Assembly (NCBI RefSeq): GCF_056746865.1
Contig: NZ_CM163382.1
Reading direction: 5' to 3' (one strand)
Length of the DNA stretch: 64,000 bases
In this document: positions 13,796 to 18,376 of the stretch, piece by piece
Numbering within the stretch: the stretch's first letter is position 1
Layout: every line of letters begins with the position of its first letter
Notes under the pieces: model-generated
The model's input: only the letters and a program-made list of their open reading frames with translations
What the model was told of the DNA's origin: nothing
Database searches by the model: none
Position numbers and translations under genes: made by a program

Positions 13796-14401
13796 ATGAC
13801 GCTCTACCAGATAAAACCGCTCTTTCAGTCGCTGTTAAGGCCGACGATGTTTTGGCTTCATAAGCTGCAAGTGTCTGCAAATCAGATCACACTTGCCGCT
13901 TTGGCACTTTCTCTTCTCACCGGTTTGTTGTTGGCGTTGGTGCCATATCCTGGCATGTTTCTGCTATTGCCCATCGTGCTTTTTGTCCGTATGGCACTCA
14001 ATGCGCTGGATGGCATGATGGCGCGTGAGTGCAATCAGCAAACACGTCTTGGGGCGATTTTGAATGAAACAGGCGATGTTATTTCCGATATTGCGCTTTA
14101 TTTACCGTTTTTATTTTTACCGGAAAGTAACGCATCACTCGTAATACTCATGTTATTTTGCACCATATTGACCGAGTTTTGCGGTTTACTCGCGCAGACG
14201 ATTAACGGTATTCGTAGTTATGTCGGTCCATTTGGCAAAAGCGATCGCGCGTTAATATTTGGTCTGTGGGGGCTGGCCATTGCCATTTATCCACAATGGA
14301 TGCAATGGAATAATTTTTTATGGAGCATTGCTTCAATTCTGCTTCTCTGGACTGCGATTAATCGTTGTCGGAGTGTGCTTTTTATGAGTGCTGAAAGATA
14401 A
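13796..14401 (+). CDS. ynbA: CDP-alcohol phosphatidyltransferase family membrane protein
   Basis: Membrane ORF containing the motif D-G-x2-A-R (ALDGMMARE); stop overlaps ynbB start. Confidence 0.8.
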   Translation: MTLYQIKPLFQSLLRPTMFWLHKLQVSANQITLAALALSLLTGLLLALVPYPGMFLLLPIVLFVRMALNALDGMMARECNQQTRLGAILNETGDVISDIALYLPFLFLPESNASLVILMLFCTILTEFCGLLAQTINGIRSYVGPFGKSDRALIFGLWGLAIAIYPQWMQWNNFLWSIASILLLWTAINRCRSVLFMSAER

Positions 14402-15297
14402 TGCTGGAAAAATCTCTGGCAACACTTTTCGCGTTGTTAATTTTAGCAACGCTGATAAACCGTTTTCTGGTATGGCGGTTACCGGAGAGAAAAGGGGGGG
14501 AGGTTACATTACGTATTCGTACCTGGTGGGGCATCGTCATTTGTTTTTCACTGGTGATTTCAGGTCCACGCTGGATGACGTTGACGTTTTTTGCGCTGAT
14601 AAGTTTTCTGGCATTGAAAGAATATTGTACGCTTATATCTGTACATTTTCCGCGTTGGTTATATTGGGGTATTCCTCTTAACTATTTGCTTATCGGTTTT
14701 AATTGTTTTGAGCTGTTTCTGTTATTTATACCTTTGGCTGGGTTTCTGATATTAGCCACCTGGCGAGTTTTTGTGGGTGACCCCTCCGGTTGTCTGCATA
14801 CCGTGAGCGCCATTTTTTGGGGCTGGATAATGACCGTTTTCGCCTTGAGTCATGCCGCCTGGTTGTTAATGTTGCCAACCATAAATATCCAGGGCGAGGC
14901 GTTACTGGTGTTATTTCTTTTGGCATTAACCGAGTCAAACGATATTGCACAGTATTTATGGGGGAAATCCTGCGGCAGAAGAAAAGTGGTCCCCAAAGTC
15001 AGCCCGGGAAAAACGCTGGAAGGTCTGGTGGGGGGCGTAATCACTACTATGATTGTGTCACTGATTATTGGACCGTTACTGACACCGCTAAATACATTAC
15101 AGGCATTATTAGCGGGTTTGTTAATTGGTATTAGTGGTTTTTGCGGCGATGTAGTGATGTCAGCCATCAAACGAGATGTTGGAGTTAAAGATAGTGGAAA
15201 ACTATTACCCGGACATGGCGGACTCCTTGACAGGATTGACTCATTAATTTTCACCGCTCCGGTATTTTTTTATTTTATTCGCTACTGCTGTTACTGA
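14401..15297 (+). CDS. ynbB: CDP-diglyceride synthetase-like (phosphatidate cytidylyltransferase family) membrane protein
   Basis: 298-aa multi-pass membrane ORF with C-terminal CTP-transferase-like motif (LLPGHGGLLDRIDS). Confidence 0.85.
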   Translation: MLEKSLATLFALLILATLINRFLVWRLPERKGGEVTLRIRTWWGIVICFSLVISGPRWMTLTFFALISFLALKEYCTLISVHFPRWLYWGIPLNYLLIGFNCFELFLLFIPLAGFLILATWRVFVGDPSGCLHTVSAIFWGWIMTVFALSHAAWLLMLPTINIQGEALLVLFLLALTESNDIAQYLWGKSCGRRKVVPKVSPGKTLEGLVGGVITTMIVSLIIGPLLTPLNTLQALLAGLLIGISGFCGDVVMSAIKRDVGVKDSGKLLPGHGGLLDRIDSLIFTAPVFFYFIRYCCY

Positions 15298-15312
15298 AGG
15301 AAAATAGAGAAA

Positions 15313-17070
15313 ATGGAAAATTCACGCATCCCTGGGGAACATTTTTTTACCACCAGTGATAATACAGCGTTGTTTTATCGGCACTGGCCCGCTTTACAGC
15401 CCGGGGCGAAAAAGGTCATAGTCTTATTTCATCGCGGTCATGAACATTCCGGGCGTCTACAACATCTCGTTGATGAACTGGCGATGCCAGATACTGCTTT
15501 TTATGCCTGGGATGCCCGAGGGCATGGAAAAACGTCAGGGCCGCGTGGTTATAGCCCATCTCTTGCGCGTTCAGTGCAGGATGTCGATGAATTTGTCCGT
15601 TTTGCTGCCAGCGACAGCCAGGTTGGACTGGAAGAGGTGGTTGTGATCGCGCAAAGCGTCGGCGCAGTGATGGTTGCCACATGGGTTCATGATTATGCGC
15701 CTGCTATTCGCGGACTGGTGCTGGCATCTCCGGCCTTTAAGGTTAAATTGTATGTGCCGCTGGCACGTCCTGGACTGGCGTTATGGCATCGTCTGCGTGG
15801 TCTGTTTTTTATTAATTCCTATGTGAAAGGGCGTTATCTGACCCACGATCGGCAACGGGTGGCGAGTTTCAATAATGATCCGCTGATCACACGGGCGATT
15901 GCCGTCAATATCTTGCTCGATCTCTACAAAACGTCTGAACGTATTATTAGAGATGCGGCGGCGATTACGCTCCCCACGCAACTTCTGATATCAGGCGATG
16001 ACTATGTGGTGCATCGCCAACCGCAGATTGATTTTTATCAGCGTTTACGTAGCCCTCTCAAAGAGCTGCATCTGCTGCCAGGCTTTTATCACGACACGTT
16101 GGGTGAAGAGAACAGGGCGCAGGCATTTGAAAAAATGCAAAGCTTTATCAGCCGTTTATATGCTAACAAGTCGCAAAAATTTGATTATCAGCATGAAGAC
16201 CGCACAGGACCATCAGCGGATCGATGGCGGCTCCTTTCTGGTGGACCCGTGCCGTTATCGCCGGTTGATTTGGCGTATCGCTTTATGCGAAAGGCGATGA
16301 AACTGTTCGGGGCACACTCTGCGGGCCTGCATCTCGGAATGAGCACCGGCTTTGATTCAGGCAGTTCGCTGGATTATGTCTATCAAAATCAACCGCAAGG
16401 CAGTAACGTATTCGGGCGCTTTATCGACAAAATCTACCTGAACAGTGTTGGCTGGCGCGGTATTCGCCAGCGCAAAACCCATTTACAAATGCTGATTAAA
16501 CAAGCCGTTGCCGATCTCCACGCCAAAGGTTTAGCCGTCCGCGTGGTTGACATTGCCGCAGGGCATGGGCGCTATGTACTGGATGCGCTGGCAAACGAGC
16601 CCGCCATAAGCGATATTTTGTTACGTGATTACAGTGAGTTAAATGTTGCACAGGGGCAAGAGATGATTGCCCAACGGGGAATGTCTGGGCGGGTGCGTTA
16701 TGAACAGGGCGATGCGTTTAACCCGGAGGAACTCAGCGCGTTAACTCCGCGGCCTACGCTGGCGATTGTCTCTGGACTGTATGAGCTTTTTCCCGAAAAT
16801 GAGCAGGTAAAAAACTCCCTCGCAGGTCTTGCCAATGCCATCGAACCGGGTGGCATTCTCATCTACACCGGGCAGCCGTGGCACCCACAACTGGAGCTGA
16901 TTGCCGGGGTGTTAACCAGTCATAAAGATGGTAAACCGTGGGTGATGCGCGTGCGTTCGCAAGGGGAGATGGATTCGCTCGTGCATGATGCCGGATTTGA
17001 TAAATGCACACAACGGATTGATGAGTGGGGCATTTTTACGGTTTCGATGGCGGTGCGTCGTGATAACTGA
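15313..17070 (+). CDS. ynbC: Two-domain protein: alpha/beta-hydrolase N-terminus plus methyltransferase-like C-terminus (585 aa)
   Basis: 585-aa ORF; nucleophile-elbow-like AQSVG motif in N-terminal half, GxG-type nucleotide-binding motif ([10 protein letters not shown]) in C-terminal half. Confidence 0.8.
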
Positions 17071-18376
17071 ACGCCGGAACGTATTGCTACAAGGAGCTGG
17101 CTGGTTATTGTTGCTGGCCCCGTTTTTCTTCTTCACCTATGGATTTCTTAATCAGTTCACCGCGGTTCAGGACCTTAAAAGCCATGATATCCCCAGTCAG
17201 GTATTCGGTTGGGAAACGGCGATCCCTTTTCTTCCCTGGACTATTTTTCCTTACTGGAGTCTGGATCTTTTATATGGATTTTCGCTGTTCGTTTGTAGCT
17301 CGACATTTGAGCAGCGCCGACTTGTCCACCGGCTTATTCTGGCAACGGTAATGGCCTGCTGCGGTTTTTTGCTCTATCCGCTGAAGTTTAGTTTTATCCG
17401 TCCTGAAGTGAGTGGGGTGACGGGATGGCTATTTTCGCAACTTGAACTGTTTGATCTGCCTTATAACCAGTCTCCTTCGCTGCATATTATTCTCTGCTGG
17501 CTACTTTGGCGTCACTTTCGTCAGCATCTGGCTGAGAGGTGGCGTAAAGTCTGTGGCGGATGGTTTTTACTCATCGCTATTTCTACTCTGACGACCTGGC
17601 AGCATCATTTTATTGATGTCATCACAGGGCTGGCGGTAGGTATGTTGATTGACTGGATGGTGCCCGTCGATCGTCGTTGGAATTATCAGAAACCTGATCA
17701 ACGTCGAATCAAAATAGCACTGCCATATGTCGTAGGCGCGGGCTCGTGCATTGTGTTGATGGAGCTAATGATAATGCTTCAGTTATGGTGGTCAGTCTGG
17801 TTATGTTGGCCAGTATTATCGCTACTCATTATTGGCCGTGGGTACGGTGGGCTTGGCGCGATAACAACAGGGAAAGATAGTCAGGGGAAACTCCCGCCCG
17901 CCGTTTACTGGCTGACATTGCCCTGGCGCATCGGGATGTGGCTGTCTATGCGTTGGTTTTGTCGTCGCCTGGAGCCGGTGAGCAAAATTACTGCTGGTGT
18001 TTATTTAGGGGCGTTTCCACGACATATTCCGGCACAGAATGCGGTTCTGGACGTCACCTTTGAATTCCCTCGGGGACGAGCGACAAAAGATCGACTCTAT
18101 TTCTGTGTACCGATGCTGGATCTGGTGGTTCCGGAAGAGGGGGAGCTCCGACAGGCCGTGGCGATGCTGGAAACATTACGCGAAGAGCAAGGCAGCGTTC
18201 TGGTCCATTGCGCGTTGGGATTATCGCGCAGTGCGCTGGTAGTGGCGGCATGGCTGTTATGTTACGGACATTGTAAAACCGTTGATGAAGCGATTAGTTA
18301 TATTCGAGCCAGACGCTCGCGGATTATGCTTAAGGAAGAGCACAAAGCGATGCTGAAATTATGGGCAAACAGGTAA
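17060..18376 (+). CDS. ynbD: Membrane protein with C-terminal dual-specificity/tyrosine phosphatase domain
   Basis: Multi-pass N-terminus and C-terminal HCxxGxxRS motif ([11 protein letters not shown]); stop is firm, start uncertain (GTG 17060 or TTG 17084; the ORF-track ATG 16985 lies inside ynbC). Confidence 0.7.

Follow-up and report, generated by a model that had tools for sequence, protein, structure and literature searches.

The ynbABCD operon of Escherichia coli: a reduced copy of a mobile gene cluster with a putative CDP-diacylglycerol-dependent lipid pathway

Gene content and organization of the ynbABCD locus

The subject of this analysis is ynbABCD, a compact array of four genes at positions 13796-18376 of a 64,000-nucleotide stretch of contig NZ_CM163382.1 (RefSeq assembly GCF_056746865.1), hereinafter the window (Table 1). 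RefSeq annotates ynbA, ynbB, ynbC, and ynbD at these coordinates, flanked by ydbD and the convergent azoR. Over the segment 13700-18450, the identity is 100% with strain 118UI of E. coli and about 96% with most other members of the species, and the four open reading frames (ORFs) are annotated, conserved genes rather than chance ORFs. An earlier reading of the window made from the nucleotide sequence alone (the sequence-only reading) had named the same four genes and reported that ynbA overlaps ynbB and ynbC overlaps ynbD. It described the products as a CDP-alcohol phosphatidyltransferase family protein, a CDP-diglyceride synthetase-like protein, a two-domain hydrolase-methyltransferase, and a membrane protein with a C-terminal HCxxGxxRS phosphatase motif. 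All these assignments hold: five catalytic domains were confirmed by profile search, and the catalytic residues are retained across 33-115 homologs. What that reading lacked is the N-terminal PAP2 domain of YnbD, which was found in the present analysis.

The genes are spaced by -1, +15, and -11 nucleotides (nt). The junction of ynbA and ynbB is TAATG, with one base in common, and ynbB is separated from ynbC by 15 nt, with a Shine-Dalgarno-like GAAGGA overlapping the ynbB stop codon. The extent of the ynbC/ynbD overlap depends on the start codon: it is 11 nt with the GTG at 17060, the choice of the prokaryotic genome annotation pipeline (PGAP) both here and in K-12 DH1, and disappears with the TTG equivalent to 17084 that PGAP selects in a deletion allele (see below), which yields a 430-aa protein. 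Because a ynbD start is found across the ynbC stop in most of the 36 other loci compared, with overlaps of 1, 4, 8, or 11 nt, and the Citrobacter ynbD has the identical GTG at -11, the 11-nt overlap is likely real.

In the common orientation of its genes, their minimal spacing, and linkage conserved across taxa, ynbABCD looks like a probable operon, and one published study treats ynbC as an upstream gene within an operon (PMC2435150). Consensus scans for promoters and terminators yielded no more matches than the same scans of shuffled sequence. The sigma-70-like match upstream of ynbA is weak, and no convincing internal terminator was found within ynbABCD with the terminator consensus. An Rfam scan of the 11-20 kb region gave nothing meaningful. 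Activation of the ynbA promoter by BglJ-RcsB has been described in K-12, and promoters of this class are linked to H-NS repression (PMC3950696).

Table 1 Features of the ynbABCD locus (coordinates of the window)
Feature	Positions	Strand	Description
ydbD	11315-13627		Directly upstream; annotated DUF2773 domain-containing bactofilin, ~770 aa
ydbD-ynbA intergenic region	13628-13795	+	Presumed promoter/regulatory region of the operon
Sigma-70-like match	13755-13783		Weak
ynbA	13796-14401	+	201 aa
YnbA active-site motif	14000-14089	+	N69-x2-D72-G-x2-A-R-x8-G86-x3-N90-E91-x2-D94-x3-D98, read from sequence
YnbA GPxGKSDR motif	14225-14248	+	Invariant in the family; contains K148 and R151
ynbB	14401-15297	+	298 aa; start codon shares one base with the ynbA stop
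YnbB cytidylyltransferase signature	15160-15240		aa 254-280
ynbC	15313-17070	+	585 aa; soluble two-domain enzyme
YnbC alpha/beta-hydrolase domain	15406-16110	+	Hydrolase_4 (PF12146), E 7e-68; similar to monoacylglycerol lipases/lysophospholipases
YnbC class I S-adenosylmethionine (SAM)-dependent methyltransferase domain	16135-17058	+	Methyltransf_20 (PF12147), E 3e-151
YnbC methyltransferase motif I	16549-16569		DIAAGHG
ynbD	17060-18376	+	438 aa; GTG start; membrane protein with two catalytic domains
YnbD membrane domain	17060-17929	+	Eight predicted helices, PAP2 fold
YnbD RP remnant of PAP2 C1 (R114-P115)	17399-17404	+	Conserved in 37 membrane domains
YnbD PAP2 C2 motif PSLH	17474-17485	+	Invariant in 37 membrane domains
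YnbD PAP2 C3 motif S-x6-HH-x2-D	17582-17617	+	Invariant in 37 membrane domains
YnbD C-terminal Cys-based dual-specificity/protein tyrosine phosphatase (PTP)-type domain	17999-18370	+	DSPc (PF00782), E 8e-26
YnbD putative general-acid Asp (D354) in PMLD	18110-18121	+	Invariant in 33 sequences
YnbD P-loop HCALGLSRS, aa 383-391	18206-18232	+	C384, R390

YnbA represents a clade with a non-canonical active site

YnbA matches the CDP-alcohol phosphatidyltransferase family (PF01066, E-value 1e-9) but departs from the canonical signature of this family, D1-x2-D2-G-x2-A-R-x8-G-x3-D3-x3-D4: asparagines N69 and N90 occupy the positions of D1 and D3, and D2 and D4 are retained as D72 and D94. A search of 1.84 billion cluster representatives produced 155 YnbA-clade clusters at E <= 1e-30. 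N69 together with N90 is present in 114 of the 115 clade representatives, and D72, D94, and D98 in all 115, so that the clade is characterized by its own signature, N-x2-D-G-x2-A-R-x8-G-x3-N-E-x2-D-x3-D. In a scan of one genome per species, YnbA relatives were detected in at least 591 species, among others, in Enterobacterales, Pasteurellaceae, the Pseudomonas syringae group, rhizobia, Variovorax, Bordetella, Campylobacter, Sulfurospirillum, methanotrophs, Nitrosomonas, and Bacteroidota.

When compared with the Protein Data Bank (PDB), the clade profile matched phosphatidylinositol-phosphate (PIP) synthases best, over the full length (E-values from 2.5e-17 to 5e-12), the best solved structures for YnbA being the mycobacterial enzymes. 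Choline/ethanolamine phosphotransferases came next, and no PgsA structure was matched at E <= 0.01. The best NCBIfam matches, likewise, were to archaetidylinositol-phosphate synthase (NF040950, 76.1 bits against a cut-off of 180) and then PIP synthase (NF045883, 52.9 against 170), with PgsA far below (TIGR00560, 26.2 against 109.1), so none of the cut-offs was reached. On the last score and the PDB search, we rejected the reading of YnbA as a duplicate of PgsA. A true PIP synthase was not accepted either, given the scores below the cut-offs, the missing equivalent of a key arginine described next, and the lack of an inositol-phosphate synthase near the cluster in the 80 loci compared (see below).

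In the PIP synthase of Mycobacterium tuberculosis, Mg-1 is coordinated by D68, D71, and D89, the last of which also forms the bridge to Mg-2, and D93 has been proposed to act as the base, whereas R155, R195, and R94 of this enzyme (PgsA1) bind the phosphate of inositol phosphate (PMC6506517). The four aspartates align with N69, D72, N90, and D94 of YnbA, respectively; therefore, as judged from the alignment, the metal site of YnbA appears remodeled, with the proposed base kept. Among the basic residues, R155 and R195 correspond to R151 and R190 of YnbA, both invariant, and R152 corresponds to the invariant K148. R94, in contrast, aligns with V95, a position that is hydrophobic across the clade, and K135 is not conserved. 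Taken together, these observations lead us to infer that YnbA works in the manner of a PIP synthase, with CDP-diacylglycerol (CDP-DAG) as the donor and an anionic, probably phosphorylated acceptor, while lying outside the PIP synthase family.

One metagenomic representative (P0233, 299 aa) is a YnbA-like protein in which the motif region is duplicated internally; it carries a degenerate signature, NAVENVLAGE, lacking D-G, and is probably inactive or an artifact.

YnbB is a paralog of CdsA with a published role in CDP-DAG synthesis

YnbB matches PF01148 (E-value 3e-69) and contains the full cytidylyltransferase signature, SAIKRDVGVKDSGKLLPGHGGLLDRID. In the search against the CdsA equivalog model NF008635, YnbB scored 112 bits, compared with the cut-off of 385, and the match was confined to the C-terminal half. 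YnbB is thus a paralog of CdsA rather than CdsA itself. Published experiments concur, describing a CdsA paralog with an unrelated N-terminal half that produces CDP-DAG in vitro and, when cdsA is knocked out, cannot take over bulk phospholipid synthesis (PMC6362211, PMC7018664). The same work ties YnbB to the synthesis of GlcNAc-PP-DAG, a precursor of the glycolipid membrane protein integrase (MPIase) in which N-acetylglucosamine (GlcNAc) is joined to diacylglycerol (DAG) via pyrophosphate (PP): overproduction of YnbB increases MPIase about 3-fold and restores it in CdsA-depleted cells, and deletion of ynbB changes neither the MPIase level nor growth (PMC6362211, PMC7018664). Phosphoglyceride-linked enterobacterial common antigen does not need ynbB (PMC8609368), and both ynbB and cdsA are reportedly cold-induced (PMC11413397).

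The inability of YnbB to replace CdsA in bulk synthesis fits a channeled, dedicated role. Compared with CdsA of the housekeeping CdsA-PgsA-PgpA/B/C pathway, YnbB shares the catalytic C-terminal half, the signature, the production of CDP-DAG (PMC7018664), and the MPIase link (PMC6362211); it differs in its much lower score and in the linkage of ynbB, across bacteria, with ynbA and the gene for a dedicated acyltransferase. Hence, the description of the pathway as uncharacterized in the sequence-only reading is apt for YnbA, YnbC, and YnbD, for which we found no paper that assigns a function, and does not apply to YnbB. Literature searches for 'ynbABCD' or its variants and for the combined names of the cluster enzymes returned nothing.

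YnbC fuses a lipase-like esterase to a methyltransferase

The nearest solved relatives of the hydrolase domain of YnbC are monoacylglycerol lipases (E-value 1e-15 in the PDB). The HRGHEH segment with the H40-R-G42 oxyanion motif and the S115, D230, and H260 triad are invariant in 44 sequences. The methyltransferase domain is strongly conserved, with 64% mean column identity, and invariant DIAAGHG and D167 (domain numbering). A sequence-only PDB search with this domain found nothing, and we found no literature on PF12147/Methyltransf_20. An AlphaFold2 (AF2) model of the domain (predicted local distance difference test (pLDDT) score 93), however, matched many SAM methyltransferases with Foldseek at a probability of 1.0; these matches are of the small-molecule type, and the best one is 3ocj, an uncharacterized Bordetella protein. 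Accumulation of polyphosphate has been reported in a ynbC transposon mutant, where polarity of the insertion or stress is a possible cause (PMC2435150).

YnbD combines a PAP2 membrane domain with a Cys-based phosphatase

The N-terminal part of YnbD yields a PAP2_3/PAP2 match (E-value about 1e-4), and in the C3 region it can be aligned with human lipid phosphate phosphatase 1. Of the residues that bind phosphate in the PAP2 phosphatases, R114-P115 is all that is conserved of the C1 motif KxxxxxxRP, in which the Lys has no conserved counterpart, and the C3 Arg is replaced by Val or Thr. Structural comparison with an AF2 model (pLDDT 92.7) ranked the human sphingomyelin-synthase-related protein (SMSr) first (14.5; 193), followed by the inositol-phosphorylceramide (IPC) synthase Aur1 (13.7; 195), E. 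coli PgpB (12.5; 153), and Aquifex aeolicus LpxE (12.4; 146), where the numbers are the two values obtained for each match; Foldseek also puts SMSr first. The fold of the membrane domain is certainly PAP2. The ranking, albeit by a narrow lead in model-based comparisons, is consistent with an affinity to the head-group-transferase branch of sphingomyelin and IPC synthases.

In the C-terminal dual-specificity phosphatase (DSP) domain, all 33 sequences have C384, R390, and the general-acid D354, whereas the His that precedes the Cys is not conserved, the family consensus being CC. In a profile search of the PDB with this domain, PTPMT1 (3rgo, E-value 3e-14) ranked fifth, above all classical dual-specificity phosphatases and below archaeal PTPs. 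PTPMT1 has a lipid function, as the mitochondrial phosphatidylglycerophosphate (PGP) phosphatase. We read the topology of YnbD from loop charges on the helices of the AF2 model, a crude hydropathy scan being too coarse for this purpose: the phosphatase domain would be cytoplasmic, as would the N-terminus and the loops rich in Arg and Lys, and the PAP2 motifs would face the periplasm.

E. coli ynbABCD is the reduced form of a mobile cluster found in many taxa

We fetched 80 loci that contain ynbA and searched their ORFs with the E. coli proteins and with an acyltransferase encoded in the neighborhood in Snodgrassella; gene content was counted in the 58 loci whose sequence extends 6.5 kb or more from ynbA in both directions. 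The common full cluster is ynbA-ynbB-acyltransferase-ynbC-ynbD, with an acyltransferase of the PlsC/AGPAT type that contains the HX4D and FPEGTR motifs. This complete set was found in 26 of the 58 loci; 19 more carry ynbA, ynbB, and the acyltransferase gene, 8 carry ynbA, ynbC, and ynbD, and 2 have ynbA alone. The remaining combinations, namely, ynbABCD as in E. coli, ynbABC, and ynbA and ynbB with the acyltransferase gene and ynbC, were each seen once. The acyltransferase gene is present in 46 of the 48 loci with ynbB, and ynbD in 35 of the 37 loci with ynbC; thus, ynbB with the acyltransferase gene and ynbC with ynbD are separable modules. In addition, a gene for a two-helix membrane protein of about 130-150 aa follows ynbD in at least 29 loci. 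This protein, for which there is no NCBIfam match and no Pfam match on record, falls into three sequence groups that do not cluster together (examples are L019 15031-15588, L062 13729-14283, L028 6239-6799, and L004 13022-13420). Among the other ORFs within 3.5 kb, which we clustered across the 80 loci, it is the sole one that recurs across taxa.

The E. coli operon, in which the distance from the ynbD stop codon to the end of azoR is only 53 nt, is, then, a reduced form of a mobile cluster of five to six genes with a wide distribution. Functional coupling of the cluster genes is further supported, at the sequence level, by two apparent fusion proteins, YnbA~acyltransferase (P0185) and YnbA~YnbC (P0191). 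The latter shares 49% identity with E. coli YnbC, and the genes for D, the acyltransferase, and B come after it; it derives from a single metagenome contig and might be an assembly artifact. Stop/start overlaps join A with B and C with D in many taxa.

The cluster is horizontally mobile. Three E. coli plasmids (NZ_CP027341.1, NZ_CP045714.1, and NZ_CP166875.1) carry a second copy, ynbA-ynbB-acyltransferase-ynbC (5463-9565 of the fetched locus L089 for the first), which includes the acyltransferase gene missing from the chromosome. The identity between the plasmid and chromosomal YnbA is about 69%, and the plasmid-borne ynbD, cut by IS66, is a 62-aa stub beside this element. Scattered plasmid and chromid copies occur elsewhere. 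In Vibrio fluvialis (L004, 7980-13420), a resolvase gene lies upstream of the cluster, and ynbC, ynbD, and the gene for the small membrane protein are intact. There, the ORF of 130 aa after ynbA joins the N-terminus of YnbB to the last ~40 residues of the acyltransferase and therefore reflects an internal ynbB/acyltransferase deletion.

Two further loci were noted. In Photorhabdus thracensis (L017, 10001-12061), a lone ynbA is directly followed by an ISAs1-family transposase gene, which suggests that the rest of the cluster was lost through the activity of insertion sequences (IS). In Aggregatibacter, a minimal cluster is flanked by mog and a DASS transporter gene; like those of the Photorhabdus locus, these neighbors are uninformative.

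Selection and decay of the operon within E. coli

The operon is matched over at least 80% of its length in 4,276 of the 5,426 complete E. coli genomes. Comparison of the window strain with K-12 DH1 gives dN/dS of 0.15-0.23 for all four genes, which indicates that ynbABCD evolves under purifying selection within E. coli. The gene at the 5' end stands out in this comparison: 19 of the 201 residues of YnbA differ, with dS of 0.22, compared with 0.08-0.10 for ynbB, ynbC, and ynbD, and this excess divergence suggests a recombination boundary or allelic replacement. The GC content of ynbA and ynbB is 44%, against 49% for the window.

Several decay alleles were identified. One is a deletion of about 1.6 kb that joins ynbA' to 'ynbC (L086, E. 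coli LB858871, 1597-3261), with both genes annotated as pseudogenes; in others, IS5 is inserted in ynbC, ISVsa5 is inserted in ynbA, or ynbA is missing. Laboratory cultures seem to keep ynbABCD silenced; its transcription has been reported to respond to cold and to acid (PMC11413397, PMC12871917).

A putative pathway for a specialized phospholipid and the alternatives

The reading that we favor, with a probability of roughly 55%, is that ynbABCD is what remains in E. coli of a mobile cluster for a self-contained, CDP-DAG-dependent pathway leading to a specialized phospholipid. In this pathway, the dedicated PlsC-type acyltransferase, encoded only in the complete clusters and missing in E. coli, would produce phosphatidic acid, which YnbB, with its published activity, would convert to CDP-DAG and thereby supply YnbA. 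YnbA, acting at the cytoplasmic face with the remodeled Asn69/Asp72/Asn90/Asp94 metal site, would then transfer the phosphatidyl group, in the manner of a PIP synthase, onto an anionic acceptor that is probably a phosphorylated alcohol. The cytoplasmic Cys-phosphatase of YnbD would remove the terminal phosphate, comparably to the action of PTPMT1 on PGP. In the least certain step, the PAP2 domain of YnbD would, on the periplasmic side, either transfer the phospho-head group to another acceptor or hydrolyze it. YnbC, a serine esterase fused to a methyltransferase, would deacylate and methylate a substrate or product. In laboratory E. coli, the operon would be largely silent and dispensable. The proposal of the sequence-only reading that the four products synthesize and dephosphorylate a modified phospholipid holds up in its core and is strengthened by comparative genomics: a CDP-DAG-dependent head-group pathway with a phosphatase step fits the domains and the linkage. 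It was incomplete, and the PAP2 domain, the Asn signature of YnbA, the YnbB literature, and the missing cluster genes had to be added.

Several observations weigh against such a pathway. Intact ynbABCD is missing from 1,150 of the 5,426 complete E. coli genomes (about 21%), 661 of which have no match at all, and the E. coli operon lacks the cluster acyltransferase and the small membrane protein. Since 19 of the 58 loci carry ynbA, ynbB, and the acyltransferase gene without ynbC or ynbD, the phosphatase step is not obligatory or is supplied by other enzymes. No head-group supply gene, be it for an inositol-phosphate synthase, a sugar-phosphate enzyme, or a nucleotidyltransferase, was found among the clustered ORFs within 3.5 kb in the 80 loci. 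YnbA lacks two canonical metal-binding aspartates and the equivalent of R94, a residue critical for inositol-phosphate binding in PIP synthase, so that its chemistry may differ from that of PIP synthase. Finally, the basic residues that mark the P-loops of PTPMT1 and other lipid-directed PTPs are missing from that of YnbD, HCALGLSRS.

A bolder version of the pathway, which we consider unlikely, holds that the YnbA clade is a new catalytic class of CDP-alcohol transferases that uses a phosphate-bearing or unusual acceptor, and that the product is a lipid class undescribed in proteobacteria whose head group is transferred by the periplasmic domain of YnbD to an envelope molecule. Candidate products under this version would include an X-PP-diacylglycerol with a pyrophosphate linkage, as in the MPIase anchor, and a lipid with a methylated phospho-head group. 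If it is correct, a complete, mobile system of donor-lipid synthesis and head-group transfer is present in hundreds of species.

One alternative is that ynbABCD is an auxiliary MPIase route, in which YnbB, possibly with YnbA as the actual phosphatidyl-to-phosphate transferase, forms GlcNAc-PP-diacylglycerol from CDP-DAG and GlcNAc-1-phosphate, and the other genes trim or modify intermediates. The roughly 3-fold increase in MPIase upon YnbB overproduction, the restoration of MPIase but not of phospholipid synthesis by YnbB under CdsA depletion, and the cold induction common to ynbB and cdsA (PMC6362211, PMC7018664, PMC11413397) all speak for this possibility, and the less acidic metal site of YnbA (N69/N90) might favor attack of a phosphate monoester on CDP-DAG. 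Nevertheless, we regard such a route as improbable: MPIase is unchanged in the ynbB deletion, and the authors themselves rate the contribution of YnbB as marginal or auxiliary (PMC6362211). Although MPIase is reportedly essential, about a fifth of the complete E. coli genomes do without the intact operon. Furthermore, the published structure of MPIase requires no methyltransferase, lipase-like esterase, or Cys phosphatase; no paper that we found tests ynbA, ynbC, or ynbD; and the near-constant association of the YnbB subfamily with YnbA and the acyltransferase across phyla points to a different primary role. Salvage or remodeling of phospholipids, whereby the esterase deacylates or degrades lysolipids, the acyltransferase re-acylates them, YnbB and YnbA return the backbone to, for example, phosphatidylglycerol, and YnbD acts as a PGP or lipid-phosphate phosphatase, would account for the best matches of the cluster acyltransferase, to the acyltransferase domain of acyl-ACP (acyl carrier protein)-phospholipid O-acyltransferase (Aas) and the AGPAT domain. 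It would also account for the kinship of the YnbC hydrolase with monoacylglycerol lipases and lysophospholipases, the resemblance of the DSP domain to PTPMT1, and the structural closeness of the PAP2 domain to PgpB-type enzymes. We deem it quite unlikely, given that YnbA scores 26 bits against the PgsA cut-off of 109 and has a distinct, clade-wide active-site signature, that the conserved methyltransferase domain has no role in simple salvage, and that the host bacteria already possess housekeeping enzymes for every step.

It could be argued, conversely, that the E. coli operon does nothing at all, being left over, silenced and in decay, from a cluster gained by horizontal transfer, and inert under all natural conditions. 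The BglJ-RcsB-activated promoter of a class linked to H-NS repression (PMC3950696), the low GC content of ynbA and ynbB, the missing acyltransferase and small membrane protein genes, the recurring decay alleles (the ynbA'-'ynbC deletion and IS insertions), and the lack of a growth phenotype in the ynbB knockout (PMC6362211) are what such decay would leave. This explanation is contradicted by purifying selection and the intact catalytic sites, and we hold it to be very unlikely: the four reading frames are intact, at about 96% identity, in 4,276 of the 5,426 genomes, dN/dS is low in all four genes, every catalytic residue is kept, and transcription reportedly responds to cold and acid (PMC11413397, PMC12871917).

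Returning to the specialized phospholipid pathway, none of the genes involved is new: all four are annotated, and one is partly studied. What is new is a YnbA clade with a non-canonical active site, the two faces of YnbD, and the view of the E. coli copy as a reduced form of a mobile cluster. Seen within the operon, the published link between YnbB and MPIase can also be read differently. Phospholipid synthesis in E. coli is a textbook 'closed' pathway, and an intact operon under selection implies an envelope lipid, or a lipid-derived modification, that has been overlooked; the apparent silencing in laboratory culture may explain why. The Asn/Asn clade extends the question to plant pathogens, rhizobia, Pasteurellaceae, Campylobacter, and bee-gut symbionts.

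Comparison with known lipid pathways

By analogy, the closest functional counterparts of the cluster appear to be the inositol-lipid cluster of Bacteroides thetaiotaomicron, BT_1522-BT_1526 (PMC9246714), and the mycobacterial and mitochondrial routes. The actinobacterial phosphatidylinositol route, in which M. tuberculosis PgsA1 is followed by a PIP phosphatase, is the closest to YnbA in sequence, over the full length, and shares with it the phosphate-holding arginines (R155/R195, R151/R190 in YnbA) and the proposed base (D93, D94 in YnbA); the ynb operon, too, encodes a phosphatase. Unlike this route, the ynb cluster has Asn in YnbA in place of the Mg-1 ligands D68 and D89, a hydrophobic residue at the R94 position, a score of 53 bits against 170, no inositol-phosphate synthase nearby in the 80 loci, and a Cys-based DSP domain as the phosphatase.

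The Bacteroides cluster offers the same logic of a synthase, a phosphatase, and transfer of the phospho-head group to a second lipid, all encoded together, but its PIP synthase has the canonical DX2DGX2AR...GX3DX3D signature, its phosphatase is of the PgpA family, it includes its own inositol-phosphate synthase, and the acceptor is ceramide (PMC9246714). The ynb cluster differs also in having its own CDP-DAG synthase, acyltransferase, and esterase-methyltransferase. Ceramide production is not known from E. coli.

The mitochondrial phosphatidylglycerol branch resembles the ynb cluster in the succession of a CDP-DAG synthase, a CDP-alcohol transferase, and a Cys-based, PTP-fold lipid phosphatase (PTPMT1), and differs from it in that YnbA is not PgsA-like and YnbD has a membrane anchor and a fused PAP2 domain. 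The lack of basic residues in its P-loop also sets YnbD apart from PTPMT1. The sphingomyelin and IPC synthases, SMSr and Aur1, are the closest in fold to the PAP2 domain of YnbD; however, sequence identity is only 10-13%, their lead over PgpB and LpxE is small, and these enzymes have no phosphatase fusion.

Genomic neighborhood

In Citrobacter, Phytobacter, and Superficieibacter (L006-L012, about 6700-9950), ydbH-ynbE-ydbL is located directly upstream of ynbA. YdbH, an AsmA-like protein, has a link to phospholipid transport; because the adjacency is confined to close relatives, we draw no functional inference from it. In E. coli, ydbH-ynbE-ydbL and ynbA are kept apart by the variable paa/ydbA region (PMC4951805). 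The product of ydbD, which occupies the upstream position in the window, has an apparent N-terminal signal-like hydrophobic segment.

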